Origin: Candidatus Auribacter fodinae
GTDB lineage: Bacteria; Auribacterota; Auribacteria; Auribacterales; Auribacteraceae
Assembly (NCBI GenBank): GCA_003599815.1
Contig: QZJZ01000005.1
Location: forward strand, 33,410 to 97,409
Length of the DNA: 64,000 nucleotides
Direction: 5' to 3'
The first letter of the stretch is position 1. The number at the start of each line of letters is the position of its first letter. Shown piece by piece: positions 1 through 27,670 of the stretch. The translations under genes and the position numbers were made by a program. The notes under the pieces were generated by a model. It searched no databases. It saw nothing but the letters and a program-made list of their open reading frames with translations, and was not told the origin of the DNA.

Positions 1-1254
1 TGCTCCCGCCTGTGTGTCGTAGGCGTCAACATTGATAAGCAGGATATCCAGCTTCGAGTCGATGAGTTGCTTCATCAGAAACTCACTGAGTTGGGTTCCG
101 TTGGTTTCAAGGCATACCCGTGCCGCACGGTTATCTTTGGCGTATCGTATAAAGTCGATCAGTTCAGAATGCAATGTCGGTTCGCCGTACCCTGACAACA
201 CGAACAGCGGCGTGTACGCGCCGAAATCGTCGATAATGCCCTGAAACACTGCTTTATCCATATCTTTCGCAGGGCGTTGTAAGACAGTTTGCGGGCATGA
301 ATCGCATTTCAGACTGCATCTGCTGGTCAGTTCGATTTCCACCATAGACGGGAAAAGATAATTTGATTTCAGATCTATTTCCCTCGCTCTATCGTCATAA
401 TTCTCCGCAGTGAGCGATTGCAGTTTCCGGCACAACTCTTTTATTACGGCGATATCTTTCTGATAATGAACAGGGTAGAAATTGTGCATATCGGAAGAGT
501 TGACATTGATACCGAAATTTTCCGCGGTTTCCCTGAGAATATCGTCCAGATGGGTTTTCCTGCTGTAATAATCGGTGATAAAACGGATTTTATCCTTTGC
601 GACAGATTCTGTATCGCTTTGCGGATTAATCGCCTTTAACTGCGCGACAGCGTCTTTTATACGGGCAGTCTCGCTTTTGATGTCATCATTGTTCTTGTAA
701 GTGCAGACCGTCAACTTGCTCTGGATGTCAGGGACAGGAACAAGGTATATGTCGGAGCCGTTGTGCATGTGGCTGGTATACATCACGCCTTTGGCATTGG
801 AATTTTTTATTATTTTATCAATAAAATCAGGTTCAAGAAGGGGCACATCATCAGCGGTAAGTACAACTGCCAATTCAAGTTTTGTTTGTATCGCGTATCT
901 CAGCAGGCATGCGGGCGAATAAAACCCGTACCGCGGTTTTATATAGATAAAATCATCGTTTATCATACGGTTCGAGTCGTTGAACGCATAGGGCTCGTCA
1001 TTACTTATCCTGATGAGGCTTATGGTAACCGGCGAATTGTTTTTCTGAACAGAACAGACACACTCCGCAATGGGGTTATCGGCAGGTTTGTCGGAGGTCA
1101 CCACGTTGATAATGCTCAGTGCAGTGGACTGCTGGAGCCTGAGCAGAATATTTTCCAGAATCGATTTTCCGTTCAGTTTTTCCAGAACCAGCGACGGCAA
1201 ATCCAGCTTATTTTTGACATAAACAGACGCATGGATAAACATATGGCTTATCAT
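1..1254 (-). CDS. Radical SAM protein with N-terminal nucleotidyltransferase-like domain. 3' end truncated by the window edge; the gene is absent from the ORF track because it has no in-window stop.
   Basis: Reverse-strand translation from ATG at 1254..1252 (RBS AGGAGA about 10 nt upstream) is open through position 1. It reads MISHMFIHASVYVKNKLDLPSLVLEKLNGKSIL...VEIELTSRCSLKCDSCPQTVLQRP...LSGYGEPTLH. CxxxCxxC (CSLKCDSC) is the canonical radical SAM 4Fe-4S motif. The N-terminal ~300 aa is loosely nucleotidyl/cytidylyltransferase-like (KNKL..L..L.GKS.L..I; ADDVPLLEPDFIDKII). Confidence 0.6.
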   Translation of the reverse strand, partial: MISHMFIHASVYVKNKLDLPSLVLEKLNGKSILENILLRLQQSTALSIINVVTSDKPADNPIAECVCSVQKNNSPVTISLIRISNDEPYAFNDSNRMINDDFIYIKPRYGFYSPACLLRYAIQTKLELAVVLTADDVPLLEPDFIDKIIKNSNAKGVMYTSHMHNGSDIYLVPVPDIQSKLTVCTYKNNDDIKSETARIKDAVAQLKAINPQSDTESVAKDKIRFITDYYSRKTHLDDILRETAENFGINVNSSDMHNFYPVHYQKDIAVIKELCRKLQSLTAENYDDRAREIDLKSNYLFPSMVEIELTSRCSLKCDSCPQTVLQRPAKDMDKAVFQGIIDDFGAYTPLFVLSGYGEPTLHSELIDFIRYAKDNRAARVCLETNGTQLSEFLMKQLIDSKLDILLINVDAYDTQAGA

Positions 1255-1527
1255 TCTACAACTATCTCCTATGCGTAAATGTAAATCCGTGAGAACCTAT
1301 TATACCTGTTTCAGCGGGTAATCGTAAACCTCATTTAATCACAAACCGGCATAAATTTATATGATATTATGCGACTTTTTTTGTTGCAGGGAATAGTACT
1401 TGCTTTTATCAGTATCAACCGGATGTGCGTAATGAAGTGTTTTTTTATTAGACATAGTGGTTTCCAGTTATTTCAGTTTGAAATTAAAATGTACCTGTTC
1501 TGAACTTGCAGTTAGGAGAAGTACCTG

Positions 1528-3387
1528 ATGTGTGGAATCGGCGTTTACATATCCAAAGATACGATCAGCGAGCAGAAACTTGCTGATAAGTTAAACACAA
1601 TGAACGCCAGTCAGGAGCATCGAGGCCCTGACTTTTCAGCAAGTTACTGTCACGGACACGTAGGATTATGCCATACGCGGTTATCCATTATCGACCTGTC
1701 CGCGCAGGCAAACCAGCCGTTTTATTCGCCGGAAAGAAAGTATGTGCTTTCCTACAACGGAGAACTGTACAATTTCAGAGAACTTCGTGAAAAACTCATA
1801 AGCCTCGGTCATGTTTTCACTACTCATTCCGATACGGAAGTTGTTCTCCACTCGTATATGGAATGGGGAACCGGTGCGTTCGTCAAATTCAACGGAATGT
1901 TCGGGCTTGCCATTTATGATTCCGTGGAGAACAAAGTGATTCTCGCCCGTGACCGGATGGGCATGAAGTTTATCCATTATTACGCTGATGAAAAACAGAT
2001 CGTGTTTGCGTCGGAAATAAAAGCCATACTGAATGTTGTGGGCATACCCGAGTACCGTACAGAAGCAGTAAACGATTTTCTCGTGCTTGGGCAGATAGAC
2101 AAAACCCGGAGCTTCTTTCAGGGTGTGCAAACGTTACTGCCGGGTAAGTTCTGTGTCGTGAACCTGTCGGATTACTCCGTTACGCCTGTCGGGTATTATA
2201 ACCTTCAGGCAAACATCGACCCTGACAGGTATATCTGCAACAAGAGCATATCCATGGAAGAACACGTAGATACGCTCGACAAACTGCTCCGCAAATCGAT
2301 AGAAAAGCATCTTATTGCCGATATCCCCGTAGGCACATTATGCAGCGGCGGGCTGGACTCTAGCCTCGTTACCGCAATAGCGAAACAGATCAACCCTGAC
2401 GTCAGAATATATCACGGCGGAGTGGAAGAAGGCGGAGGCGAAGAGGAATATGCTGTCCTTGCGGCAAAACATCTGAATGTGGATATCAACTTTATTTATA
2501 TGTCACGAGACAAGTACCTCAATGATCTCGTTGATACGGTGTACCAGATGGAAACGCCATGTTTTCATCAGAATGACATCTCGCTCTATCATATATGCAA
2601 ACTAGCACGCACACACGGGGTAAAAGTGCTGTTGTCCGGTGAAAGCAGTGACGAACTGTTCGCCGGGTATCCGTGGTATCCCAGATTGATGAAAAAAACC
2701 GCTTTTGCCGATCCGAACGGCACAGGCTGGACAAACGATTACCTGCCCACAGCAGGGTTGTTTTATCGTTTTCCCGATTATTACGAAACGCCGCGTCTCG
2801 CCAACGCGTATTCGCTGTTTGCGCATCAGGGCGAAAAACTGCTCAGGTGGAACTGGATACTCGATACGTTCGGGTTTCTGCAGGATATCAGCGAAAAGAC
2901 AGGCAACGCCATCCTGATCGACAACTTGCTCACCTTTTTGAATACATTGTTGTACACCGCTGACAGGATGGGCATGCTGTCGTCCATAGAAAACAGGTTC
3001 CCGTTCATAGAGAACGACATAGTCGATTTCACGCTCAACCTTCCGTTGGAATTTAAAGTCGATTTCCGCGCTGGGAAAAAGGTGTTAAAACTGGTTGCAG
3101 AACGGTATCTTCCGAAGGAAATAATCTATCGCAGGAAACAGGGGTTCCCGACACCGGTGGAATCGTACATATCGTTTAATGAAGCGTTTTTCAAAGACGG
3201 TTTTTTAGAACAGCATTTATCTCTGCCCGCGTCAATATTCGGTAAGACCGGAGTGGATAAACGATTGATGTACCGCCTTACCACAGCAGAAGTCTGGGGG
3301 CGCATATTTGTGCTGAAACAAAATCTCGACGAGATTAAAAATCATATTTCAGCGACGCTCAACAGGAAATATCAGTATATATCGTAA
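1528..3387 (+). CDS. asnB: Asparagine synthase (glutamine-hydrolysing), AsnB/WbpS-like amidotransferase
   Basis: N-terminal MCGI (Cys2 class-II glutamine amidotransferase) and the SGGLDSS PP-loop motif. 619 aa. RBS AGGAGA. Confidence 0.88.
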   Translation: MCGIGVYISKDTISEQKLADKLNTMNASQEHRGPDFSASYCHGHVGLCHTRLSIIDLSAQANQPFYSPERKYVLSYNGELYNFRELREKLISLGHVFTTHSDTEVVLHSYMEWGTGAFVKFNGMFGLAIYDSVENKVILARDRMGMKFIHYYADEKQIVFASEIKAILNVVGIPEYRTEAVNDFLVLGQIDKTRSFFQGVQTLLPGKFCVVNLSDYSVTPVGYYNLQANIDPDRYICNKSISMEEHVDTLDKLLRKSIEKHLIADIPVGTLCSGGLDSSLVTAIAKQINPDVRIYHGGVEEGGGEEEYAVLAAKHLNVDINFIYMSRDKYLNDLVDTVYQMETPCFHQNDISLYHICKLARTHGVKVLLSGESSDELFAGYPWYPRLMKKTAFADPNGTGWTNDYLPTAGLFYRFPDYYETPRLANAYSLFAHQGEKLLRWNWILDTFGFLQDISEKTGNAILIDNLLTFLNTLLYTADRMGMLSSIENRFPFIENDIVDFTLNLPLEFKVDFRAGKKVLKLVAERYLPKEIIYRRKQGFPTPVESYISFNEAFFKDGFLEQHLSLPASIFGKTGVDKRLMYRLTTAEVWGRIFVLKQNLDEIKNHISATLNRKYQYIS

Positions 3388-4259
3388 ACGATGGGGCTGT
3401 TGCTTTCTCTGACGCACACAAGCAGATGGTTTTTGTTTACTGAGAGAAAAACCGGCGTGTAATGCGTTTCGCTGAAATCGAAATCCTTGGTAAAGATAAG
3501 GTTCCCCTCAGCGTCATATTTTTTGATCGTATTTTCCAGCATTCCGGAACCGACAAAAAAGCAGTCCAGTTCTTTGCTGTATGCTATGGATTCCCCGGTC
3601 AATTCCGTTTGTTGAAACGCGCCGTTTCTGAAGGTAAAGATGTTGCATGTTTTTCTCAGATTTGCGGTTTGGAAAAAGTCGATGATGTACAGCGTATCAT
3701 TGAAATACGCCAGTTGAATCGGGTATATGAAATTTCCCTGATAAGACGATATGTTGCCGTTCGGGTTAAGGTAATGCAGGATGCCCGACATTGCTTCACA
3801 GAAGTATATTCCGCCTTTATCGTCGGTGATGACAGACATAATCGCTTTATCTTTGAAAAACGGAATTTCGTCTTCCATGGCGCCGATAAGCTTGAAATCC
3901 TGTGAGAAGAGTTTAGCGGAGAATAATACTATATTGACAGTAGTCAATCCACTTACAATGTACATTTCCCTGTATGAGGTAATGGTGGACAGTTCCCATG
4001 GGTAGTGAGAACTCATCGCATATTTGTTGAGTATATTAAAATTAGTATCGGCTGAAATGATCTCTTTTGCTTTTCGATCGGACGAACTATTGTTAAATAA
4101 TATCTTTTCATTCACGCACGAGATTGTTCTGAAGTTCAGCACTGAGACGTCTGAGAGTAATGCCGTAGCTTTTTTATTATATCTGAGATAATAATCTTTT
4201 TGGAATTTTTCAGCGGTCAAAGTAATTTTCTTACTATCATTATTATCCATTTTATCCAC
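3372..4259 (-). CDS. Hypothetical protein, no recognisable motif
   Basis: 295-aa ORF convergent with and overlapping the asnB 3' end by 16 nt. No signal peptide. Confidence 0.4.
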   Translation of the reverse strand: MDKMDNNDSKKITLTAEKFQKDYYLRYNKKATALLSDVSVLNFRTISCVNEKILFNNSSSDRKAKEIISADTNFNILNKYAMSSHYPWELSTITSYREMYIVSGLTTVNIVLFSAKLFSQDFKLIGAMEDEIPFFKDKAIMSVITDDKGGIYFCEAMSGILHYLNPNGNISSYQGNFIYPIQLAYFNDTLYIIDFFQTANLRKTCNIFTFRNGAFQQTELTGESIAYSKELDCFFVGSGMLENTIKKYDAEGNLIFTKDFDFSETHYTPVFLSVNKNHLLVCVRESNSPIVYDIY

Positions 4260-4521
4260 GATATCTGGCTGTTTGGTTTGGCAATATTATAAATATTATT
4301 CCTTTGATATCAAATTACAGCGGAAGAAGCGAGCAAATTTTAATAAAAGATGACGAGGTTAGTATAAAACATCATCATATCAGAGAATATTTCAACAGTT
4401 AAATTTCGTTTCAGAAGAACATGATCCTGATTAACATTGTGGCATAATAAATGCTTTAAATTCTTTGAGTACCTCTGTCTTGCATTTTTATCATATTTAA
4501 TCATAAATAAAGGAGCATGGA

Positions 4522-6366
4522 ATGAATCCGGTATTGCAGGAAATAAAACAAGACAAAGCAGTAAAATTAAAGGCATACAAGGACAAGTTCGAAATGAGTT
4601 TGAATGACTGGATGCAATATCATCATTCCGAAATAGTTATGGATCAATGTTTCTATATGGGAGTTAAAACGCTAAAGAATCCAATGGATCTTTGGGTTTA
4701 TCAGGAGATCATATACTCTGTAAAGCCCGACGTGATTCTTGAAATTGGTAGTATGCACGGAGGTAGTACTCTTTATTTTGCAAACCTTCTTGATTCAATA
4801 GGGCGTGGACAAGTAATTTCTGTGGATATACAGCGCGATTATTACCAGATTGAACATGAAAGGGTGATAGAAATTACTGGTGACAGCGCATCACCGGAAG
4901 TAGTGAATAAAGTATATGACCTATGCAAGGATAAAACTGTCTTTATCATTCACGATGGAGAACATTCAAAAGTACAGGTGCTTAAAGATCTGAGAGCCTA
5001 TGCAGATTTAGTTAGCCTGAACAGTTACTTTATTGTTGAGGATACCACAAGCGAATTTTTAACCAAAAATGAACTATACGAGGGTCCGTTTGAAGCGGTT
5101 GAGGAGTTTTTAAGGGAATCATCGGATTTTATTGTAGACAATACTCGTGAACGATATCTGCTTACATATGCTATGAACGGTTTTTTAAAACGGATTCAGG
5201 TTAATAATAAAACTGCTGAAACACCAGCGTGCGTTATGAATAAATCAGTTGTATCCGGTAACGATCTTGCGCCATATCTTGCGGTGAGATACAGAATGAT
5301 TGTCTTATCAAACTATGTTAAATCCAATATGAATAGGCTTGATTACGAGAGTCAGGAAATACTCTGCGATCTCGGTCTCAATATGTATACGTTATTCAAG
5401 GATGTGCTGGATTTATCCTTTGGATCCATATCCTTACAAGGAAATACAGCTATATATGGATCTGGCGCATTTTGTGAAGTACTGGTTTCTACTTTGAACA
5501 GGTATCAAGATATCTTCCTCACTGCGATTGTGGAAAAAAACGAGGCTAAGCACGGTTCAACAATGCTTGGGTTGCCTGTTATATCGATAAATGATTTGGA
5601 AAGATATGAAATACGAAATATTCTTATTGCCTCATTGGCACACGGTCGCGAAATAGCGAAGCGTCTTGAGTATCTACGAAAGGAAAAGAATATTAGGGTT
5701 ATCCAACTTCCTCTTCAGCTATTATCTATTATGAATCCTAACATTGAATATGCGGATGAATTATTGAATACTTATCCCATCATAGCATCGGAGATGATGA
5801 GCCAAGAGCAGTTGTGTGTCATTATAAGAATGTTGGGAAAGGTTCTGATCGACAATGTGGATGGAGATATTGTTGAATTAGGTTGTAATTCCGGTTCCAC
5901 ATCGTTATTTATTCGTCGGATGCTGGATCATTACCAGAGTGATAAGAAGTATCATGTGTATGATTCGTTTGAAGGTTTGCCGGATCATACAGATTATGAT
6001 GTTCCCCAAAGCGGAATTCAGCGTTTTAAAGGGGAATGTTATACTACCAGAGATATATTTATCCAGAAATTCAACGAGGCTGGTCTTGTTTTGCCCGAAA
6101 TTAATGAAGGCTGGTTTAAAGATATCCCTGATGAGAAGTATCCCGATAAAATATCTTTTGCATTTTTTGATGGTGATTTCTATTCATCAATTATAGATAG
6201 TTTTGAGAAAGTGTATCATAAGTTATCGAGTAATGCGATTGTATGCATCCACGATTATCGAAACAGGAATTTACCGGGAGCCCGTAAAGCATGTGATGAT
6301 TTTCTGCATGATAAACCAGAAACTGTCTTTGAAATTGATGGTATAGGGTACATGGTAAAGATCTGA
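4522..6366 (+). CDS. Two-domain SAM-dependent O-methyltransferase fusion: N-terminal CmcI / rhamnosyl-O-methyltransferase-like, C-terminal TylF / macrocin-O-MT-like
   Basis: N-terminal KNPMDLWVYQEIIYSVKPDVILEIGSMHGGSTLYFA resembles the CmcI (cephalosporin-hydroxylase) family. C-terminal FAFFDGDFYSSIIDSF and IHDY resemble the TylF family DxDxYES core. RBS AAAGGAG. Confidence 0.55.
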   Translation: MNPVLQEIKQDKAVKLKAYKDKFEMSLNDWMQYHHSEIVMDQCFYMGVKTLKNPMDLWVYQEIIYSVKPDVILEIGSMHGGSTLYFANLLDSIGRGQVISVDIQRDYYQIEHERVIEITGDSASPEVVNKVYDLCKDKTVFIIHDGEHSKVQVLKDLRAYADLVSLNSYFIVEDTTSEFLTKNELYEGPFEAVEEFLRESSDFIVDNTRERYLLTYAMNGFLKRIQVNNKTAETPACVMNKSVVSGNDLAPYLAVRYRMIVLSNYVKSNMNRLDYESQEILCDLGLNMYTLFKDVLDLSFGSISLQGNTAIYGSGAFCEVLVSTLNRYQDIFLTAIVEKNEAKHGSTMLGLPVISINDLERYEIRNILIASLAHGREIAKRLEYLRKEKNIRVIQLPLQLLSIMNPNIEYADELLNTYPIIASEMMSQEQLCVIIRMLGKVLIDNVDGDIVELGCNSGSTSLFIRRMLDHYQSDKKYHVYDSFEGLPDHTDYDVPQSGIQRFKGECYTTRDIFIQKFNEAGLVLPEINEGWFKDIPDEKYPDKISFAFFDGDFYSSIIDSFEKVYHKLSSNAIVCIHDYRNRNLPGARKACDDFLHDKPETVFEIDGIGYMVKI

Positions 6367-6502
6367 TCGACAAGTCATCAGGAATACTCAAATATTCTTA
6401 ACTCTTTGGTATCGTCTCATCACTTTTGTAAAGTTAGAAATCTCTTAGTATACTAGTTGGTCTGTAATGCTGAACATATAATGTACATAAAAGTGGCAAA
6501 TA

Positions 6503-8719
6503 ATGGATATAGCTGTTATTTTTTCATTGTATGAGGATTCGTATCTTTTCAAGAGGTTTTTCGCGTGGGCAGAAGAAGTCAGCAAAGATAACTGTTCTTT
6601 TCATTTTATCCACCATTCTCAAAAAACTTTAAACAATACTATAGATTTTCCTGGAAAATATATTCATCTTGTTGACTACAAGGATGTTGTGCTTTATCTT
6701 GAGGAGAATGAAATTGATATTGTGCATTCGTATATCGGAGATAAAGTAACCTTCTTGGCGCGGGCGGCTGGAGTAAAACGGATAATTCAGCATCCTATAT
6801 CCAGTTATACTGAACTGGGAGTGGATTCTTACCCGGCAGACTGTATTTGTTGTTCCGATGAAAGTATGATTGGCCAGCTGAAAAAACAGTGTCCGCAAAA
6901 ACATATAGTTTCCATCAAAGACAGCATTAATATCGAGCCGGATCATAAGCCTCAGGATCTGCGGGATAAACTAGGTTTTAAATCCGGTGAAATCGTAATC
7001 GGTTTTGTCGGGAAATTATGGCGTCAGAAATATTTCGATAAGTTCATTTCAATGTTTTTGGAGTTATGCAAAAAAAATAAGAAATTGAAACTAGTACTCG
7101 ACGGGAGGACTTATAATAAACAATTTGAAGACTACCTTAATAGTAGGGTTGAATCAATATATTTTCATGATGATCCTGATGAACTGATCGCTAACTCGGA
7201 TATTTTGGTAATCAAGTCGGAAACATATTTTAATCCATATGGCGAAATTATTACTGAAAATGATCAAGAATATAACTGGTGGTTAATGCATGCAATGGCA
7301 TATGCTATCCCATTTATAACGATTTATAATAAGACTCAGAAACAAAGAAAGGAACTTATTAACGACAAAGAAAACTGTTTTGTCGTTGGCTTGGATGATA
7401 TGGCAGCTTATCAGGCAGCGCTCGCAGAACTAATCGATAATAAAAGAATCCGTGATACGTTTGGGCAAAACGGTAGAAAGATTCTGACAGAGGGTTACGG
7501 TGTAAATCTTGTAGCACAGCAATATAAAAAGCTTTATAACTATCTCTTGTCCGAACAGTTTGTGTCTGATTATCCATCAGCATCAAAAGATGCGGAGACC
7601 CATTTTCTGGGTAATATGATCGAACTGAAATCTCTTAAACTTGATCACAGAAAAGTGCTTGTTGTCCGTTCGGGAAGTCAAGTAAAAACAGAGGAATTGA
7701 TTACAAATATGACGAGAGCGTTTCCATCCGTGGAGTTGTCTCTTTGTTGTCATAAACGGAATTTGTCTGAAATGCGAAAATACGCAAATATCCATGAAAT
7801 TATTACCTATCAAAAATCCGATAGTTTTGATCAGGCAAGAATGAAAGCAGCCATTAAAAAGATTAATCGAAAAAAATATGATTATGTCTTTTTTGTCTTT
7901 AATAGTATTTTCCAGGAAATGACCCATCAGAATCTGTTGGATATTATCGTACAGTTACGTCCTGAATCAGGTATTGTAATATCGACGGGGAAACTCAACT
8001 TCCTTTATCCTTTTGTGCGGAAAGATGATATTGAGAGAAACCATCTTATAAATAAATATAAAAAAGCGCTGGACCCTGAGCAAGAATATGTGATTACTTC
8101 TCCATGGGAAAAGAATATTGCACATCTGCCGAAATGGGATCGATTTAAAATCGAGAAATACAGGGAAGTTATTAACTCCAGCAAAAAAATTCTTTGTTGC
8201 GGAGACCCCACTAATCCTATGTTCGGATTGTTTGAGGATGAACTAAAGGGTAAAGAACTCATTTCTGTTGATATCGTTGAAAAATGCAATCGTGATATAA
8301 TTGCAGATATTTGTGATTTACACATGATTGAGGATAACTCTATAGACGGTATTATATGTTATGCTATTTTAGAACATGTATATAATCCTTTCAAAGCAGT
8401 TGATGAATTGCATAGAATTTTAAAATCTGGTGGAAAAATAATGATGTTTGTTCCATGGATGTGGCGCCATCACTCGAATAAAAAAACATGCTTTGATTTT
8501 TATCGCTTCTCATGCGAGGGTGCCCGGTATTTGTTAAAAGATTTTTCCTATGTGGAATTGTCTCCTATACAGGGTAAACTGGAAGCGGTTTTTGTCTACG
8601 TCCTTCAGTTTATAAAATACCGGTCATTACTACACAAGCCGCTAGTCAAACTTATAAGAAGATTTGACAAGTGTACAGAAGAGGATCCTTCCGGATTTAA
8701 TATTTTTGCTGTTAAATAG
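6503..8719 (+). CDS. Glycosyltransferase (GT1/GT4-like) fused to a C-terminal class-I SAM methyltransferase domain
   Basis: Middle region GFVGKLWRQKYFDKFISMF...LVLDG is GT4-like. C-terminal ILCCGDP...DGIICYAILEHVYNP...LKSGGKIMM is Methyltransf_11-like. 738 aa. Confidence 0.5.
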   Translation: MDIAVIFSLYEDSYLFKRFFAWAEEVSKDNCSFHFIHHSQKTLNNTIDFPGKYIHLVDYKDVVLYLEENEIDIVHSYIGDKVTFLARAAGVKRIIQHPISSYTELGVDSYPADCICCSDESMIGQLKKQCPQKHIVSIKDSINIEPDHKPQDLRDKLGFKSGEIVIGFVGKLWRQKYFDKFISMFLELCKKNKKLKLVLDGRTYNKQFEDYLNSRVESIYFHDDPDELIANSDILVIKSETYFNPYGEIITENDQEYNWWLMHAMAYAIPFITIYNKTQKQRKELINDKENCFVVGLDDMAAYQAALAELIDNKRIRDTFGQNGRKILTEGYGVNLVAQQYKKLYNYLLSEQFVSDYPSASKDAETHFLGNMIELKSLKLDHRKVLVVRSGSQVKTEELITNMTRAFPSVELSLCCHKRNLSEMRKYANIHEIITYQKSDSFDQARMKAAIKKINRKKYDYVFFVFNSIFQEMTHQNLLDIIVQLRPESGIVISTGKLNFLYPFVRKDDIERNHLINKYKKALDPEQEYVITSPWEKNIAHLPKWDRFKIEKYREVINSSKKILCCGDPTNPMFGLFEDELKGKELISVDIVEKCNRDIIADICDLHMIEDNSIDGIICYAILEHVYNPFKAVDELHRILKSGGKIMMFVPWMWRHHSNKKTCFDFYRFSCEGARYLLKDFSYVELSPIQGKLEAVFVYVLQFIKYRSLLHKPLVKLIRRFDKCTEEDPSGFNIFAVK

Positions 8720-8797
8720 GCACCATATCGCTGATGAAGTGTGGTATCAGCCTTCCTCCGCAATCCACTGCGAATAAAAATCTTTTCAGCCCGCGAT

Positions 8798-8826
8798 TTG
8801 CAAAGATGGTTTTTATCGGCTATAAT
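8798..8826 (+). promoter_or_regulatory. Sigma-70-type promoter: -35 TTGCAA, 17-bp spacer, -10 TATAAT
   Basis: TTGCAA 8798-8803 and TATAAT 8821-8826 sit about 42 nt upstream of the PEP-CTERM gene ATG. An RBS AAAGGAAA follows. The same TTGCAA-17-TATA[TA]A architecture recurs at 49422-49450. Confidence 0.5.
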
Positions 8827-8867
8827 TTATATAGAAAAAATAATCAACCCGATAAAGGAAAACCTCG

Positions 8868-9569
8868 ATGCGCAACGTCTTCTCGCTGTCGTGTATATGC
8901 GTACTGCTTATATATGCGGCAGGCGTCTCTGCCTATGAACTGACATGGGATTACCTTGCTCGCACCACATGGGGCGACGGCTTCCGCCCTGACGGCGACA
9001 GTTACGGCAACACCGCTGTCTGGGACTACAAGTATACGCCGTTAAATTCCACAAGTTACGCGCTGTATCAGGCGCTTTCCAACTGGTATGAACCCTATGG
9101 GATGTGGTCGTACCTTCCTGTTCCCGGTGTTGCGGCTGATAACAACTGGCTGGTCGTCGCGGTTAATACTGCTCATCCCGGCAACCTGAATGACCTCGCG
9201 ATACAGTTCATCGCTCCGATGGACGGTGTGTATGACGTCTCTGTCCAGCTGTACAATTGGAACGGAGAAAATCTCAACGGCGCTGACGGGCAGGATTTCT
9301 ACCTGCAGAAAATGTCGTCCATTCTTGACACCGAAACCAATCCGGTGCATGGCACATCGGTTTTATCCGCGCAGGACGTATCACTGCTGGCGGGGGAGTC
9401 GCTCTTTCTGCGTATCAATATGAAAGCGAATTCACATTATGACAGCATATCGGTTCAGCAGTTTGTCGTCACCGGAACGTTTCCTGACCCGGTAGTCGTG
9501 CCTGAACCTGCGTCTGTCCTCCTGATGTTAGCCGGGTTAAGCGTCCTTATCCGCCGCCTGCGGCGATAA
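8868..9569 (+). CDS. PEP-CTERM sorting-domain secreted protein
   Basis: N-terminal signal peptide. C-terminal VPEPASVLLMLAGLSVLIRRLRR (PEP motif, TM helix, basic tail). Paralog of the partial gene at 63307-63981 (YELTWDYLARTTWG vs YDITWDYLERTGWG). Confidence 0.75.
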   Translation: MRNVFSLSCICVLLIYAAGVSAYELTWDYLARTTWGDGFRPDGDSYGNTAVWDYKYTPLNSTSYALYQALSNWYEPYGMWSYLPVPGVAADNNWLVVAVNTAHPGNLNDLAIQFIAPMDGVYDVSVQLYNWNGENLNGADGQDFYLQKMSSILDTETNPVHGTSVLSAQDVSLLAGESLFLRINMKANSHYDSISVQQFVVTGTFPDPVVVPEPASVLLMLAGLSVLIRRLRR

Positions 9570-9770
9570 TCCGGAAACGATGAATAAGTCACAAAATAAT
9601 GTTATTGTTAAGCTTCGCAAAGTCTACGTCAATATCTTCAGCAGGAAAACGTTACACGTATAAGATCACTCCACGTCGACATTCCTCGTGATTGTAAAAG
9701 AGGGCGCAGAACCTTTTTTCAGAATTCCCAACATCCTGATGAGAAAAAAATGTGATGAACAATGTAATAT

Positions 9771-12700
9771 TTACAGCGATGTGTCGATAGCGGGCGATGC
9801 GGACCGCAGGCGAAGAATCTTTCTGCCTATCGTTGTGCCGGATAGCGTGAACGCCCCAAGCTGGTGCGAATCGGTATATTCGTTGAACGGCTGAGAGTTG
9901 ACAGTTAGCTCCTCAATCTGTTCAGCGGCAAGGTCGCTGAACAGGAAAAGAGCAAATGCCAGTGTTTTGATGCCTGATACGCTGACTACGCCAGCGAGCC
10001 CTGCTTCCTGAAGAAGTTCGGTATTGTTGGACGCGAGTTTCAGCTGGGGCGACGAAATGTCATAGGTGCGAATAATGTCCGCCATGATGTCTCTGTTCGG
10101 TGTCTGTGAGCTCATTGCAAACCAGTCGAAAGCCTCTTTGTCGACTACACGCCCCCCGTGGGATATGAGCGTATCGTACAGCGATTTGCCGAGCATGCCT
10201 GTTATTTGGCGCTGGGTGTAGTTTCTGGAAAAGAGGACAAACCGCAGTGTTTTATTCTTTTCTGTGTACGTATCCATGAGTGCAAACAGTGATATGAACA
10301 GGTATTTCCTCATGTTCATGTTTTCTTCAGGTGTATTGGGAAGCATGCCGGTGCTGTCGAGGTCGAGCATAAGCACATCCATATCTAATGAATCGGGAAC
10401 GGGAATTTCAGCGCCGTCGCCCGATGGTATTGATTTATGTATAATATACTGTAAAACAGCGAATTGCGATGGAGCCATGTTCAGCTTGTCCGCAACAGTA
10501 AATGACTGAATGAACCTTTCTGACGGAGTCAGGCTTGGAGAAACCAGAACGGCGAAAATCGCGTTTTTGTTTAACATCGCAGGGTCAGGCAGTACTGATA
10601 AGCCGCCTGACAGGTATTTGTTGAGCAGTGCGGCTGATGACGGTACATTAAAGCTGAAACTGAGGAACAGTGAGTTTACTTCCTGCTGGGTAAACTCCGG
10701 TTTGGTGTTTGCCATTGAGCTGAGCAGTCTGCCGGTCAGCTCAGCGGAAAGCCGTTCGATGCGTTTATGAGCAACAGACCTGCTGATCCCCAGCAGGTTG
10801 CCGATGTCTTCATGGATAACGCCGCGCTTATATTTTAAATAGAGCATAACCTGTTCGTCTTCAGGCAGTGACCGGAAAAAGCCGTCGAGCGTTTTATTTG
10901 CAGATACCGATAGCGGAGCGGTGAACACTCCCGGCTCGATTATATTTAACAAAAAGGTGAAATCTCTGACCGTCGCCAGCTCTGAAACCGTTTCTTTTTT
11001 AGAACTATACGCCGCTCCGGTATCTTCACGGAAAATCAGGGGGAACCGTTTCGATTTCCGGTACGCCATTTCGTTCATGGCCCGCGCGATAGAGGCGCTG
11101 TCGTGTGATTCGTCTTCCCATGCGATGTTTAACGCCATAAGGGCATTTGCCGATGCGGACTCCACATATTTTTTCGCGTTCGTGTCGTTGGTTGTGAGGA
11201 TGTTAGATATCCCTTTCCCACCAAAAGGCATATTCTCATGAAACTTTAGGAACAGGAAGAACTGGTCTTCAAGGGAAAGAGCGTAAAAAGCACGTTTGTA
11301 CACGCTGTTGTCAAACGGTAGTTCATGGAGTTCAGGGATCCGGGTCATGAATTCGAACGAGTCTAACCCCGCAATTTTATCAGAATATTCTGACATCAGC
11401 GACTGAGCTGTATACTGGGGGTAGAGGCGTTTACGGAGTTGATCGGTGAACAGCGACATGTATGGCGCAAGTTCAGCGCTCGTATGGAATAATGCCTCTA
11501 TCTCTTTTGCCGGCATCTGTTTTTTCAGGCGCAGGTAGAGTATTTTCCTGTCCTGAATGTTCAGGTTTTTTGTGAATATGTCGCGGAGAATTGACTGCGT
11601 CTGATCGTTGAGCGGGAACGTGTACATTCCTCCTTCAATAAGGTTGAGGAGGAATGTATAGTCGTCCAGCTCGCGCGTTTCTTCGTATATCCGTTTTTGT
11701 GAAACAGGTGTGCCGGATTCCATGGCGTCATCCTTGAAGAGCAGGATAAAGGGATCGGCGCCTCTGTATATCCGCCTGTTGACTGCGAGCATCATATCGT
11801 CTGTGGAGTCGAACTTTTCTGAGAGAATGACGTTGATCGTTTCCATCAAGCGTGATTCCGCGTTTTGTGTTTCTTTTTGCCATCCTGATGAGGCGATCCT
11901 GATAAGATTGAAGACCCCGTCTCCGCCGGATACGGGCCGTTTCTCATAATGTTTCATAAAGAGTATGACCTGATCCTGATAACTCAATAGTTTAAACGCC
12001 AATTCCAGCATGGTGTCGGTGAATTCTTTTTCCGCTACTGCCGGGACGGCGCGTAGAAAGCTGAAATCCGTGATGCCGGATATCTGTTCAGTGAAGTATT
12101 CAGACGTACTCTGCCGTTGTGATGTCCCATTTTCTATCCATTGCCGTACGAGCCGTGTTACTTTGCTTTGTAAGTAAGGTGTAGTGAGTATTTTGCCTGT
12201 TAAACTCCGAACTGATTTCAGTGTAGCGCCTTGTTTGTTCCTGAGATACATTTGTAACTGTTCTTCCGGCGTGAATTCATTGAAAAACAGGTCTTTGAGC
12301 ATCGATTGAAACTCGTCTGATAACGGAAATGTATACAGCCCGCCTTCAAGCGAATTGAGCATAAAAGTGAAGTCATCAAGGTCATTGATTTCCTGCTGGA
12401 TTGTATCCTTGCCGACAGGTTCCATATCTGTCCGCATATCGTCACGGAAAACGATGGGGAATACCGGTACGCCGGTATAAAAATGTTCATTGAGCCGGGC
12501 GGGTAATCGTGCCGGGTCAGGGTATTGCGCAAACAGGAAGAGCGCATCGACAAACCGTTGGCGTGCCGCTTCATTGAACGGCAGTTCCGCGTTGTCCGAC
12601 GTGAAAAGGGTGTCCCACACTCCTTTTCCGCCGCCGTTCGGCATATTGAGGTATACGCGCATATACAATATAATCTGATCGGCGAAACTCATCGATCTGA

Positions 12701-15700
12701 AAACGGGTTCCAGCATTTCAGGGTCCACTTCGTCCGGTTTTGGAGCGAGCGCCGCCAGCCAGTTGAAATCCGATAACTGCGTTATGCTGTCCCTGTACTG
12801 CTCGAAAACTGATACGGATTGTTCCCTGCCTGCCTGCCGTTGCTGTACAAGGCGGTTAATCTTTTGGGTGACAAACAGGATGGTTTTTTTCCATCCGGTG
12901 ACAGCGGATATCCGCGCGATCGGCATCTGGTAATGGTAATGCAGGTAGAGTATGACTTGCTCGTTATAGGTCAGTTCTTTAGTGAACACGTCGCCCAGCA
13001 TTGCCTGCTGTACAGCGTCGAGAGGGAACCTGTACAATCCTCCTTCTATCGCGTTCAGCAGGAATGAGAAATCGGTTATGCCCGCTATTTCATCCCTGAG
13101 AGCCTGCGGGTCAAGTGAATGTTCCTCAGCTGGGATATCCACCTTAAATACCATAGGCGGTTGGTCTATACCTGCGTATATCTTGCTGTGCAGGAGTGCG
13201 GAAAAGGCGCTGGGATTATCATCATACTCCTGTGTGTACAGGCTGATCGCCTGTTGCAGGTGTTCTTTTGCGGCATCGATGCGTGCGGTTAAAGTCTGGA
13301 AACGTCCGGCGATCTGCCGTTCTATGCCGTTGAGCCATCCTCGAAGTGGCAGTTTCTGGTAATAGCGCATGTACAGTATGATTTGATCGCTGAAACTGAG
13401 CGCCCTGAACGCCGCTTCGTTTTCTTCCGGGCTGTGTGCCCCTTCAGCGAGCAGGTTGTCAATAAACGAGAAGTCGGATAGGACTGCGATCTTTTCGGAG
13501 TACTCGTTCAGTCCGGGAAAATAGCCTGATGACGTTTCGCCCATCATGAAATCCAGCATTTGTTCCCTGAGGTCGCTGAACGCTTTGTTAATTTTACTCA
13601 GGTGTAAGGGGTGGATATCCTGTATCTCTTTGTATGTCATGCGTTTTGCGAAAAAGATATATGCCAGTTTCTGCATTTCGGCCGGCAGTTGATTGAAGAA
13701 AGACTTCAGTTGATCGTTATCAGGTAAGTACGGCGCTCCTGCGGGGAGCAGGTTCAGCAAAAATGTGTAATCATTTATTCCTTCAAGGCTGATTGACTCA
13801 AAATTTGTGACGGGAGCGCTGATTACGGAAACAGGTGCGGTCATTTTGAATGTGAACGGGTAAGTGCCGTTATATGCCTGTCTTTTGACCGTATCGGCGT
13901 ACTCGAACGGGTCATATTCCTTATCGGGCTGAAACAATACCATCGCTTTGTTGAACGTGCTGATCGCGATGCGCATTCGTTGCCGTATGCTAACCTCCGC
14001 AAAGGGAAGTATATTCGACAATGCGATCGGTTTTAGTCCCTGATCGTAGGCGCTGAACAGGAGAAATTTATCTTCAAACATGAGAGAATCGAACACCTGT
14101 TTAAGCTGTTCGTCTGTCAGGCCTTGCGGTATTTTTTCGGTGTAGTCCGGCAAAATGAATGCGCGCAGGAACCCGAAATCCTCATTCGCGCGCAGGCGTT
14201 CGAGCAGATCGAAATAATGAAATTTAAACACAATATTTTTGAGATACAGCGCGGCGTCCTCTTCAGTTACGCTCATTGCGCCAGCAAGTTGAGCGGCGGT
14301 GATTTTGCCGTTTTTAAAGAGCCCGAACACGTCCTGTTCCTGTTTGTCGAGAAACGGCAGATAGCGCTGAAAACGATCATAGTTCAGGAACACCTCATTT
14401 GCTTTGGCGAGTGTGTTTATGAGATGTGTTATTTCACCAGTTTCAATATGGAACGCTTCTTTTACAGCATTGATTCCATCGCGGTGCGTATCTGCGTTGC
14501 GGTACACCCGGAGCATATCGCGCTGTTCCGTCGAAAGGAGATTGGAGAGAATCCCGTCGAAAAAGGCTTGCTGGTGAGTGAGGTTTATGTCTTCTGTATC
14601 CTCGCGTTCCATACGCAGTTCCATATCTTCCAGCTCATCATTGGCGAGCGGGTCGAGATCGCGCATGACGATGTTTTCTTTTGACTTGCCCGAATCGTCG
14701 TATGTTCCGTCAAGATCGGTAAGGCGTGAACCGGTATAATGCAGGTTTGATTTCAGAGTATCATCAGCGTAAAAGCGCGCTATGCCGATTCGAACTTCTT
14801 CTTCCACAAACGCAGGGAACGAGCCGAACTCAGAGAGTATGCGGTCGAGCTCCTCTTCAGTACGCTGTGTGTGAATGCTGGTGAGCAGGGCAAGATAGCC
14901 TTCCTGATCAATGTCTCCGGTAGTTATATAGCGTGCGCGCCATGCCCGTGAAAGGCTGTGGCGTGACCGTGCAGTTTCCAAAGCCAGAGCGTGGTACTGG
15001 TTGACCAGTTGTTCTATGGCTTCGGTATCGCCGTTGCCCGCGGCGATCCATGTTTGTTTTTCTTTTTGTGCCTGTGTTTGTTCCGGTGTAACTCTCTGCT
15101 GAGGAACACGCACCGGAGCGGTTGATACTGCCGGTGAAATGCGCACGGCAAGCTCCTTATCGTCAGCGCTTCGCAGGACATGAACGTTACGCACTTTTGA
15201 CAGTTCCATTTGCAGTACAGCTATGGAGCCGCGGTCATCTCCTATGTTTTCATACAGTATGCGAATTACTGATGATAAAGCGTGATGTATATCTTTCAGG
15301 TCAAGTGAGAAGTCGATTGATATATGGTTGAGCCGGGGGTTGAAATGGTCTGTCAGCAATCGTAAATCTGTTGGTAATCCTTTCGGACGCAAAGCAATCG
15401 GCGCATTGTTCTTGTGCGCATTGACCAGCAGATAGGTGGTATAGCGGGGTACAAGGCTGTTCGCGAGGCTGTACGTCCCGTGTATGTCACGGCTAGCAAG
15501 CCCGGTTTCAGCAAGGCTGTCAAGCAGGGCTGATATGTCCTGCGATGTCAGGTCGAGCTGGTACATATCGTATTCGAGTTCAGGGAGTAATCCTTCCACT
15601 GAATACGGATGGGTTGACAGCAGTCCAAGTATCGACATTTGTATCTGGTTGATTTTTCGGATGTACTGCGAGTAGCCTCGGTAATTGATAAATTCCTGAA

Positions 15701-23645: not shown

Positions 23646-24950
23646 ATGGGATTGACTACCGGAGAGAAACATTTATTAAAAAAACGGCTGATAAACGATT
23701 CACTGTTTATGTATATAAGCAATGTTATCAGCCTCGGCAGTAAGTTCATACTGACTGTCCTGCTTGCCCGTTACATTGGGCCTGAAGAGTTTGGTGTCTT
23801 ACAGCTTGCCATTACCGCCGTATCGTTCATATCACTATTTCTCGACCTGAAAACCGATGACGCGGTCATCAAATTCGTATCGGAATACATCACGTCCGGC
23901 GACCGTCCCCGCGTCAAGGCTATTGCTGTGATCAGTTATGTGTCTAATGCCGTATTAGGTGTTGTCTGCATGGTTGTTATATATTTCCTCGCGCCAGTTG
24001 CGGCTGAACGGGTACTGCACCGGGGCGATTCAACCGATCTGATACTGATTTATACATTTGGTACAGTAGTTTCGTATATAGGCCGTACATCAGCCGCTAT
24101 TATCCAGGGAACCAAACGGTTCAAGCTGATTACCGCGCTGTCCATACCGTCTTCTGTCCTGAAATGTGCTATGCCGTGTGTTCTTATCCCGTTCGGAATG
24201 AAAGCGATAATGTGGGGCTACGCCATTCCTATGGCGGTGTATGCCGCCGCAAGTACCGCGATTGTATTCTGGATATTGCGGGGGACGTTTGCCAAGCGCG
24301 CAGGTTGGAACCTGATTAAAGAGGAAACGCGCAAAGGTGCGTATTATGTGTTTCACAGTTCGTTGTCCTCTACTTTTAAATCGTTTATCGTGTATATAGA
24401 CGTGCTGATACTCGGTTTTTTTCGCGGGCCTGAGGAAGTTGCCTACTATAAATTCGCGCTGGCGTTCACCTCGGTATTCGGGTTTATCAGCAGTCCCATA
24501 AACGCGGTGATTTACCCGAACCTCAACTCGCTATGGCTGAAAAATGACATCGATATGTTCCGAAAAATTATTGTGAAAGTCATGCGTTACAAGATGCTTA
24601 TCATTGTTCCCGCCGCGATAGCCGCTTCTGTGTTGTCTCCGGTTATCATCAGGCTGACCGTTAAGGAAGAATTCATGCCGTCTGCGTTCGCGATACTGGT
24701 TGTTATCTGGGCTGTGCTTCTGACCAACGTTTTTTCATGGATAAAACCGGTGCTGATTATCTGGCAGAAACCGCATATATCCACGGTCGGCAATTTCGTG
24801 ATTATGGCGGCAATGTCCGCGTTATCGTTTATTCTTGTGCCTGCCTATGGCTTTAAGGGGTCGGCGGTCACGTATCTTCTTTCCTATTCATTCGGCATCG
24901 GGCTGATGCTTTTTTATGTGTACAGGTACTACCGCCGATTCTATTCCTGA
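23646..24950 (+). CDS. wzx: Wzx-type polysaccharide flippase (MOP/PST family)
   Basis: 434 aa, about 12 TM segments. N-terminal LKKRLINDSLFMYISNVISLGSKFI is typical of Polysacc_synt. Confidence 0.75.
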   Translation: MGLTTGEKHLLKKRLINDSLFMYISNVISLGSKFILTVLLARYIGPEEFGVLQLAITAVSFISLFLDLKTDDAVIKFVSEYITSGDRPRVKAIAVISYVSNAVLGVVCMVVIYFLAPVAAERVLHRGDSTDLILIYTFGTVVSYIGRTSAAIIQGTKRFKLITALSIPSSVLKCAMPCVLIPFGMKAIMWGYAIPMAVYAAASTAIVFWILRGTFAKRAGWNLIKEETRKGAYYVFHSSLSSTFKSFIVYIDVLILGFFRGPEEVAYYKFALAFTSVFGFISSPINAVIYPNLNSLWLKNDIDMFRKIIVKVMRYKMLIIVPAAIAASVLSPVIIRLTVKEEFMPSAFAILVVIWAVLLTNVFSWIKPVLIIWQKPHISTVGNFVIMAAMSALSFILVPAYGFKGSAVTYLLSYSFGIGLMLFYVYRYYRRFYS

Positions 24951-25903: not shown

Positions 25904-27670
25904 TTAAAACTTTGCTGATACAAACTTTTTGCGCAGTTTTCTACGTAACTTGACCGCGAGCATATTCAGTATAAAAACGATGGTTATAAGCAGTAATGTA
26001 GTGGTAAACACCATTGGTTTTGCCGCCTCGCTGTTCTGGCTCTGGAATCCCAGGTCATATATATGAAACCCCAGATGCATAAAGCTTCGTTCAAGATGAA
26101 CAAACGGGAACATTCCGTCTACTGGAAGTTCCGGCGCGAGTTTTACCGCTCCGACAAGCATCAGCGGCGCCACTTCGCCCGCTCCGCGCGCCATGGCAAG
26201 GATCATGCCGGTCATGATGCCGGGCATAGCTCTTGGCAGAACAATCCGCCAGATGGTCTGCCATTTGCCTGCGCCGCATGCGTATGACCCTTCGCGCATA
26301 GAGTTCGGTACTGCGGATAACGCTTCTTCGGTCGCCACAATTACCACAGGCAGTGTCATCAGCGCCAGTGTCATCGATGCCCACAGGATGCCTCCTTTAC
26401 CAAAAGTAGGGTTAGGCAGGCGTGCGGCAAAAAAGATATCATCAATCGATGCGCCGACCATATAACAGAAAAAACCGAGCCCGAACACACCGAACACAAT
26501 GCTCGGCACTCCGGCAAGGTTGTTGATAGAAATACGAATCGTGCTGACTACAAGCCCACCTTTGGCGTATTCGCGTAAATATAACGCCGCCATAACACCG
26601 AACGGCACGACAGCCAACGACATGATAACAGTCATGACCACCGTTCCGAATATGGCGGGAAAGACACCGCCTTCGCTGTTTGCCTCGCGGGGCTCATCAA
26701 AAAGGAACTCGTGCCATCGCGAAAGATATATGTTCATGCGGTCGAAAAAAGTCAGTGAGTTGGCCGGGTACATGCGGACAATATCTGCCAGTGGAATGAT
26801 TTTTTCTTTATTGTCAGCGGTTGTGAACCTGATCTTATATTTATCATTTTCTTCTTTCAGTGAGTTTATTTCTGTGCGTATATCCTCGTACGCGCTTTGT
26901 GATCTGGCATGAAAGGATTTAAAGTGATCGTTCTGTGTGTTCCACTGCTCGGATTCGATACCGAATTTCAGTTCCTTTTCGCGCAGTTTCAGGCGCTCTT
27001 TTTCCTCATAAAAATTTATTTTGCCGATTTCATGGGTTTCCAGTTTGCGCTGTGTACGCCATCTCTTGCGGACTTCTTTGTGGTGTTTGTTGAATGTTTC
27101 CCAGATCTGGTTGTCGTCCTGAGCGATAACTTCGCCGTTATAAAGAAATGCTGAGGGGAATCCGTAAAACCGTCCCCATGATGTACGTTCAACAACACAT
27201 GCCTGCTCTGGCGTGGTATGCTCTCGGACATCATACTCATTTACCCAATTATAATGTTCGCCGGAAAGGTCGAAATTGCCGGTACGCACCAGCATTCGTT
27301 TGGCGATGCCGTTGTGCTTCTCAAAGTAGGCGACTGCGTCGGAATTGACTTTTTCCTGGTGCTGGTGCAGTTCTGATTTTGCCGGGTTGAAATGTTCTAC
27401 GCGGGTAATTTCGCCCATATATGGTTTGTTGTCGTATGTGACAAACAAATCTACCGGTTTTGGCCAAAGTGTATTGATACCGTTGATAACAATCAGCGTC
27501 ATCAGCCCGGCGATCATCATTAAAGATACCACAAGCCCGCCGCCGGTAAGCCATATCATCGGTTCTCCCTGCGCGAAGAGCGATGCTTTTGCTCGTTGAC
27601 GGCTTGACCGTTTAAAGGAATTTTTCTTTTTTGATTCTGTTGATTTCTGGACAGCGGCATCTGTTTTCAT
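25904..27670 (-). CDS. pstA: Phosphate ABC transporter permease PstA, long form (588 aa)
   Basis: C-terminal permease core with the EAA-like loop ([16 protein letters not shown]). N-terminal ~300-aa extension. Confidence 0.85.

Follow-up and report, generated by a model that had tools for sequence, protein, structure and literature searches.

A nucleotidyltransferase-like domain fused to a radical SAM protein in a putative surface-glycan locus of Candidatus Auribacter fodinae

The window analysed here, a 64,000-nucleotide stretch of the Candidatus Auribacter fodinae genome (assembly GCA_003599815.1, contig QZJZ01000005.1, positions 33,410 to 97,409 of the forward strand), begins within a gene that extends past its left edge and encodes a protein of 632 residues, hereafter P0001. 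The protein can be divided into an N-terminal domain with a nucleotidyltransferase fold, a helical linker, a radical S-adenosylmethionine (SAM) core with a twitch-type C-terminal domain, and a putative tetratricopeptide repeat (TPR) segment, and we regard these module assignments as very probably correct. We propose that P0001 is a four-module surface-glycan enzyme in which the degenerate N-terminal domain would dock a nucleotide-linked sugar for chemistry at the radical SAM site; for this overall reading, we estimate a probability of about 40%.

The reverse strand from position 1254 to position 1 translates as 418 codons without a stop. From the base composition of the window (45.7% G+C), the chance of such a run is 1.2e-10, and the remaining five frames of this segment contain between 5 and 27 stops each. 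The G+C content at the three codon positions (0.49/0.33/0.54) is like that of the adjoining asnB gene. As the original prediction had recognized, the frame is missing from the mechanical list of open reading frames (ORFs) because it runs off the window edge. Its ATG start codon (positions 1254–1252) is preceded by a ribosome-binding site; Met1 is invariant across 16 homologues, and the N-terminal sequence MIxHLFIHAS is conserved in every full-length homologue. A candidate promoter is located in the divergent intergenic region common to this gene and asnB, and the region from 1100 to 1700 gave no match to an Rfam family.

An independent contig from JGI (L072, positions 1–9724; metagenome 3300007352), found via a member of the same 90% identity cluster, is 100% identical in reverse complement to window positions 1 to 5051 and reaches 4673 bp past the left edge. 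Over this extension, which had been suggested as a check, there is no frameshift or premature stop, and the frame runs 214 codons further to a TAA (gene at L072 3798–5696). The edge frame is therefore a real, complete gene of 632 residues. A homology search identified the full protein as RJP62047.1, which is 100% identical to all 418 window-encoded residues and is deposited as 'MAG: radical SAM protein [Candidatus Auribacter fodinae]'. The gene is already public, under this generic name only; its host belongs to the phylum Candidatus Auribacterota of the PVC group.

The radical SAM assignment rests on a Pfam match (PF04055; 49.5 bits against a cutoff of 29.5, residues 307–434), on a partial TIM-barrel fold found by structure comparison and on three conserved motifs (Table 1). 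The original prediction had placed the CxxxCxxC motif at the end of the visible frame; the motif is present, but about 100 residues of the core follow it within the window. At least 90% of homologues retain Cys313 and Cys317. Beyond the window edge, the family alignment contains only four invariant cysteines, arranged as C503-x12-G516-x4-C521 and C553-x2-C556, and no conserved cysteine past Cys556. A twitch domain is a shortened version of SPASM that holds one auxiliary cluster (PMC9012708), and the four C-terminal cysteines of P0001 are predicted from the alignment to form such a site, in which one auxiliary [4Fe-4S] cluster would be fully ligated. A full two-cluster SPASM domain (seven-cysteine motif; PF13186/TIGR04085) was considered and rejected on the basis of the cysteine count and of the lack of a Pfam match to PF13186 in P0001 at E values up to 1; some distant relatives (P0029, P0041) do match SPASM. 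When the family profile was compared with sequences in the PDB, it matched GDGT-MAS (E 6e-12) and BtrN (E 7e-11) and, more weakly, a viperin-like enzyme, PqqE, MoaA and BlsE. For the C-terminus, the Pfam TPR match is sub-threshold (16.8 against 26.8 bits); over residues 592–630 the family profile picks up designed consensus TPR proteins in the PDB (E 7e-12 to 1e-8), and AlphaFold2 predicts helices at residues 571–631.

Table 1. Coordinates of the radical SAM fusion gene, its predicted modules and motifs, neighbouring genes and related loci (window numbering unless a locus is given)
Feature	Position	Strand	Remarks
5' part of the fusion gene	1..1254	-	codons 1-418 of 632; last 214 codons and stop beyond left edge
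Sigma-70-like promoter candidate	1299..1328	-	TTTACG from 1328, 18 nt, TATAAT ending 1299; 10/12; consensus match only
Ribosome-binding site AGGAGA	1265..1270	-	10-nt spacer to ATG
Nucleotidyltransferase (cytidylyltransferase/MobA-like) fold domain, residues 1-175	730..1254	-	
Degenerate signature loop, residues 6-22 (FIHASVYVKNKLDLPSL)	1189..1239	-	hhalign and family conservation of H8, A9, S10, N15
Acidic motif ADDVP, residues 134-138	841..855	-	at position matched by MobA-like NTP_transf_3 profile
All-helical linker, residues 176-300	355..729	-	AlphaFold2 secondary structure; invariant Lys222
Radical SAM core, first part, residues 301-418	1..354	-	rest of core, twitch and TPR off-window
CSLKCDSC, residues 313-320	295..318	-	CxxxCxxC ligands (C313, C317, C320) of SAM-binding [4Fe-4S] cluster
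SGYGEP, residues 354-359	178..195	-	GGE-type SAM-binding motif; G355, P359 invariant
ETNG, residues 383-386	97..108	-	conserved motif of SPASM/twitch radical SAM cores; E383, T384 invariant
asnB-type glutamine amidotransferase	1528..3387	+	divergent; 405 bits to TIGR01536
295-residue ORF	3372..4259	-	overlaps asnB 3' end by 16 nt
Double sugar O-methyltransferase, CmcI-type and TylF-type, 614 residues	4522..6366	+	unusual fusion
Group-1 glycosyltransferase fused to class I methyltransferase, 738 residues	6503..8719	+	unusual fusion
233-residue ORF	8868-9569	+	weak C-terminal PEP-CTERM match, 19.2 bits vs 20.7
Giant 2619-residue ORF	9771-17630	-	sole family match: short sigma-70 region-4-like helix-turn-helix, residues 2253-2294
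Verrucomicrobiota relatives' loci	L017 9971-12811; L018 5177-8269		

P0001 belongs to a small family of some 16–30 clusters. Among 5.8 billion proteins, 15–16 clusters at 90% identity were recovered; when 1.84 billion representatives were searched exhaustively with a profile, about 25 members, full-length or partial, were listed with E < 1e-80. The hosts are Auribacterota, unclassified metagenome-assembled genomes (MAGs) and Verrucomicrobiota. The best NCBIfam model for P0001 is TIGR04321, 'spiro-SPASM protein', which matches over profile positions 195–502 only (100 bits, E 1e-28). The TIGR04321 cutoff of 250 bits is not reached by P0001 or by the other family members (100–120 bits), and genuine TIGR04321 members (505–543 residues) score 380–495 bits. 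A comparison of the two families by hhalign nonetheless returned 100% probability (E 9e-52), with P0001 residues 108–562 aligned to spiro-SPASM positions 78–503. The span starts midway through the transferase-like domain and runs through the linker and the radical SAM core to the four-cysteine domain; the first ∼100 residues of P0001 lie outside it. The family is thus clearly homologous, as judged from profile alignment, to a curated family whose cutoff it fails. Spiro-SPASM proteins have a module order like that of P0001 and the same four invariant auxiliary cysteines, but P0001 is ∼120 residues longer, with a helical linker of greater extent and, at its C-terminus, an additional predicted TPR. 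The two also differ in distribution (Spirochaetota versus Auribacterota and Verrucomicrobiota) and in gene neighbourhood, with a SurA-like isomerase and a cytidylyltransferase beside spiro-SPASM genes in part of the four loci described below, and group-1 glycosyltransferase (GT1), asnB and DegT genes beside those of the P0001 family. In sequence, the P0001 family is a distant sister group to spiro-SPASM, from which its longer linker and its predicted TPR set it apart.

The original prediction had described the ∼300 residues before the cluster motif as loosely similar to a sugar nucleotidyltransferase. This likeness holds for about 175 residues; residues 176–300 form the helical linker, which has no family match. 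AlphaFold2 models were obtained with a predicted local distance difference test (pLDDT) of 90.7 for residues 1–300 alone, and with a pLDDT of 87.2 and a predicted template modelling score (pTM) of 0.87 for the fusion protein (16-sequence alignment). Fold comparison was needed for the N-terminal domain because profile searches against PDB sequences gave little: the whole-family profile had no nucleotidyltransferase match, and the N-terminal profile had a sole, weak cytidylyltransferase match (Leptospira 6OEW, E 0.0017) that lies outside the signature loop. Structure comparison does find a nucleotidyltransferase fold, in alignments that span ∼180–200 residues. Between P0001 and the CMP (cytidine monophosphate)-sugar synthetases and KdsB/SpsF-like cytidylyltransferases (PDB 6IFD, 6OEW and 1EYR), the VVTSD and ADDxP motifs occupy equivalent positions. 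The Pfam matches of P0001 fall below threshold, with 14.4 bits against 27 for NTP_transf_3 (PF12804; residues 129–159 to profile positions 88–120) and 13.4 bits against 22.6 for CTP_transf_3 (PF02348). Among nine proteins scanned against Pfam, one homologue alone, P0010, passes the NTP_transf_3 threshold, with 30.3 bits.

The signature loop distinguishes P0001 from the CMP-sugar synthetases, as do the sub-threshold Pfam scores and the fusion to a radical SAM domain. Basic residues of this loop hold the nucleoside triphosphate (NTP) phosphates in characterized cytidylyltransferases. An invariant Q-x-R-x-x-S-x-R-L-P-G-K loop is common to three KdsB-like cytidylyltransferases whose genes neighbour those of spiro-SPASM, and hhalign pairs this loop with H-A-S-(3-residue insertion)-N-x-x-D-L-P-S-L in the P0001 family (probability 56%, E 1e-4). 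In this moderately secure alignment, Ser10, Asp19 and Leu22 occupy the places of the invariant Arg, Arg and Lys. Where the LPGK lysine would stand, family members carry Leu, Phe, Glu or Lys, most of them one of the first three. Together with the Pfam scores, these replacements make the 'NDP-sugar-forming' (nucleoside diphosphate sugar) activity that had been ascribed to the domain doubtful. Several polar residues are nevertheless strongly conserved (His8, Ser10, Asn15, Ser54, Asp59, Asn95 and ADDxP at 134–138), which argues for a working ligand site; ADDxP is partly lost in P0012 and P0013, and its counterpart in spiro-SPASM proteins retains D-x-P-L. From these patterns of conservation, the N-terminal domain is probably a ligand-binding module that has lost canonical nucleotidyl transfer.

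The gene order around spiro-SPASM suggests where such a module could have come from. We compared four Spirochaetota loci (L068 6937–11147, L070 6904–11160, L071 6922–10357 and, from Treponema, L039 9263–16505). A SurA-like peptidyl-prolyl isomerase is encoded directly upstream of spiro-SPASM in three of the four (L068, L070 and L071), and a stand-alone KdsB-like cytidylyltransferase directly downstream in two (L068 and L071), with none in L070. A protein of ∼300 residues follows in L068 and L070, with a faint PseG-like match in L070 only. In the Treponema locus, the cytidylyltransferase constitutes the N-terminus of an 834-residue protein, two genes downstream of spiro-SPASM, which also has weak PseG-like and methyltransferase matches and is followed by an ATP-grasp enzyme. 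The N-terminal half of the TIGR04321 profile also recognizes the neighbouring cytidylyltransferases (E 7e-7 and 3.5e-5), so the fused domain has the look of a paralogue of the active enzyme encoded beside it that has since decayed. The gene order fits a cytidylylated substrate that would be made by the neighbour and read by the degenerate domain.

The neighbours of the family gene itself were counted by clustering the ORFs that flank it across 17 loci. The recurrent ones are GT1 (6 of 17 loci), GT2 glycosyltransferases (6 of 17), asnB (5 of 17, within ∼7 kb, and adjacent only in the window and L072), an uncharacterized protein of 293–295 residues (4 of 17) and methyltransferases; an aminotransferase of the DegT/DnrJ/EryC1 family lies directly downstream in 4 of 17. 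Two loci also carry genes for sulfate activation and sulfotransferases. UDP-glucose/GDP-mannose dehydrogenase is encoded in the Verrucomicrobiota loci; in L018, the family gene adjoins a GT2-TPR fusion, three tandem methyltransferases, a GT2 and this dehydrogenase. Downstream of the fusion gene, L072 carries a convergent GT1 (513 residues), a methyltransferase (280 residues) and another GT1. The location beside asnB and methyltransferases inside a glycan cluster, as first described for the window, is thus borne out.

These observations suggest the following model. The N-terminal domain would most likely dock a CMP- or NDP-activated sugar by its nucleotide handle and not make it; docking rather than synthesis is proposed because the three basic residues are lost but the conserved polar residues are kept. 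A 5′-deoxyadenosyl radical generated at the radical SAM site would abstract a hydrogen from the sugar, and the auxiliary cluster would take up the second electron. The net outcome could be oxidation to a keto-sugar without O2, of the kind that BtrN carries out ahead of a DegT-type aminotransferase, or a closely related epimerization or decarboxylation. Amidation of the product by the asnB-type enzyme, its amination by the DegT homologue in some loci and its methylation might follow, before the nearby glycosyltransferases (GT1) transfer it; the TPR may dock a protein partner.

Of the characterized enzymes, BtrN (2-deoxy-scyllo-inosamine dehydrogenase; PDB 4M7T/4M7S) offers a close parallel for the chemistry. 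As is predicted for P0001, it combines a radical SAM core with a twitch domain and one auxiliary cluster with four Cys ligands, and this cluster is the proposed electron acceptor in the two-electron oxidation of an alcohol (PMC9012708). BtrN acts on a carbohydrate-like substrate and is followed in its pathway by a DegT-family aminotransferase (PMC9012708), which may be compared with the DegT gene downstream of the P0001 family gene in four loci. In contrast, BtrN is a single module of 250 residues that lacks the nucleotidyltransferase-like domain, the linker and the TPR, and its substrate is not nucleotide-linked. BlsE (cytosylglucuronate decarboxylase; PDB 7VOB) acts on a nucleoside-linked uronic acid, and the UDP-glucose dehydrogenase of the Verrucomicrobiota loci and the asnB-type amidotransferases in family loci also point to uronic acids. 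The idea of a nucleotide handle has a precedent in fosfomycin biosynthesis, where a cytidylyltransferase (Fom1) adds a CMP handle to a small substrate on which a radical SAM enzyme (Fom3) then acts. In that pathway the transferase domain resides, in active form, on a separate protein, Fom3 is a B12-dependent methyltransferase, and we know of no sequence relationship of either to the P0001 family. The succession of BtrN and aminotransferase and the logic of Fom1/Fom3 are analogies, and no evidence of membership in either system.

If the docking model is true, the P0001 family and TIGR04321 spiro-SPASM, which is widespread in Spirochaetota (Treponema and many spirochete MAGs), gain a testable functional hypothesis. 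It would represent a new design principle among radical SAM enzymes, in which a decayed nucleotidyltransferase is reused as a docking module for nucleotide-activated substrates, and it would mean that anaerobic candidate phyla use a tailoring step independent of oxygen on their surface glycans. A broader proposal, that the P0001 family and spiro-SPASM together constitute a new class of O2-independent nucleotide-sugar oxidoreductases, epimerases or decarboxylases whose substrate is made, in spirochetes, by the KdsB-like neighbour, is more tentative, and we consider it doubtful. If the model is wrong, what stays is a multi-domain radical SAM protein with correct boundaries and a public label that is only generic.

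Several observations weigh against the docking model. The loop alignment behind the lost basic residues has a probability of only 56%, and the conservation of Lys14-Asn15 and of the ADD motif is compatible with a rewired but active transferase. No stand-alone nucleotidyltransferase gene was seen within 10 kb in the Auribacterota loci. The link to DegT is weakened by P0013, which has a DegT gene downstream but has lost its CxxxCxxC motif. A literature search found no paper on spiro-SPASM, TIGR04321 or the P0001 family, and none on Treponema flagellin glycosylation together with radical SAM, or on cytidylyltransferase together with radical SAM and nonulosonic acids.

An alternative, that of the original prediction, is a true bifunctional enzyme, in which an active, divergent nucleotidyltransferase would supply a CMP- or NDP-sugar for the radical SAM domain to modify. 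The conserved Lys14-Asn15 pair and ADDxP acidic motif, the above-threshold score of P0010 and the lack of a separate transferase gene in the Auribacterota loci would all be explained. Such an enzyme would have to operate with Ser10, Asp19 and Leu22 in place of the KdsB-like invariant basic residues, with a 3-residue insertion in the loop and, in most members, with Leu, Phe or Glu at the LPGK-lysine position; the profile search against PDB sequences, with its one weak cytidylyltransferase match outside that loop, likewise gives little indication of a functional transferase. We consider this alternative unlikely.

The C-terminal half of the protein raises a different prospect, namely that P0001 is a SPASM/twitch maturase that modifies a protein or peptide, with the TPR and perhaps the N-terminal domain recruiting a protein, such as the giant neighbour, in which a residue would be crosslinked or oxidized. 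After spiro-SPASM, the next-best hidden Markov model (HMM) relatives of P0001 are maturases (the tungsten-enzyme maturase TIGR04317, 89 bits; TIGR04311; PqqE), and its fold neighbours are of maturase type. The putative C-terminal TPR and giant ORFs near the gene in the window and in L001–L003 would suit protein modification, as would the SurA-like peptidyl-prolyl isomerase directly upstream of spiro-SPASM genes. However, neither a small precursor-peptide gene nor a recognition element for RiPPs (peptides made on the ribosome and modified after translation) was seen, sugar-pathway genes are the only recurrent neighbours in the 17 loci, and the fused domain has a nucleotide-binding fold. The predicted single auxiliary cluster is a further difference, as most peptide SPASM maturases have two (PMC9012708). 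A maturase function is, in our judgement, rather improbable.

Loss of the cluster-binding residues in some relatives invites the suggestion that the protein is mainly a non-catalytic scaffold or regulator of the glycan machinery, with both of its enzyme-like domains sensing ligands and the TPR acting as adaptor. P0010 has CxxxCxxY, P0013 lacks the motif yet has the full set of four auxiliary cysteines, Radical_SAM is not matched by P0057 or P0060, and P0132 has a sub-threshold match only (17.7 bits against 29.5). A spiro-SPASM protein of Treponema (L039 9263–10894), which scores 495 bits, is likewise without CxxxCxxC. The members without cluster cysteines look like recurrent pseudo-enzyme derivatives, and the degeneracy of the N-terminal domain itself would accord with a sensory role. 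P0001 and most members, in contrast, keep CxxxCxxC, SGYGEP, ETNG and the four auxiliary cysteines, all strongly conserved, and we give the scaffold little credence. Least probable is a radical SAM C-methyltransferase acting on the sugar, as had been suggested in the original prediction and as the heavily methylated glycan implied by a methyltransferase-rich cluster might recommend: the B12-binding domain (PF02310) had no match at E values up to 1 in the nine proteins scanned against Pfam, on which ground a B12-dependent route was rejected, the C-terminal part is of twitch type followed by the putative TPR, the nearest folds and profiles are twitch/SPASM enzymes and not class A, B or C methylases, and the neighbouring methyltransferases are of ordinary SAM-dependent O- or N-methylating types.

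The flanking gene order indicates that the fusion gene is monocistronic and divergent from asnB within a glycan cluster (Table 1). The second-best model for asnB is an XrtA/PEP-CTERM amidotransferase, and this match and that of the ORF at 8868–9569 are hints of a PEP-CTERM/exosortase-type exopolysaccharide locus. The GT1 part of the glycosyltransferase–methyltransferase fusion clusters with GT1 genes that lie beside the family gene in six loci. Further into the window are more methyltransferases and a Wzx-type flippase (23646–24950). Giant ORFs flank the family gene elsewhere as well, with 9788 residues in L001, ∼1606 residues in L002 and L003, and more than 2226 residues in L003. Among the Verrucomicrobiota relatives, which are 930–1030 residues long, P0029 (928 residues), the one whose C-terminal domains were scanned, has a weak C-terminal NHL-repeat match in place of the TPR.

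The 295-residue ORF that overlaps the 3′ end of asnB had no match in Pfam, NCBIfam or PDB sequences. Its homologues (37–41% identity, 70 invariant columns) are encoded within ∼7 kb of the fusion gene in L001, L006 and L013, and it is a possible partner of the fusion protein. A relationship to the ∼300-residue protein downstream of spiro-SPASM was tried and rejected (hhalign probability 0.25%).

Elsewhere in the window, an 882-residue ORF (27667–30315, reverse strand) combines a WD40/β-propeller-like region (residues ∼100–460) with an ABC permease domain (BPD_transp_1, residues 700–874), and belongs to an ABC transporter operon that includes a PBP_like_2 binding protein (30416–31402).

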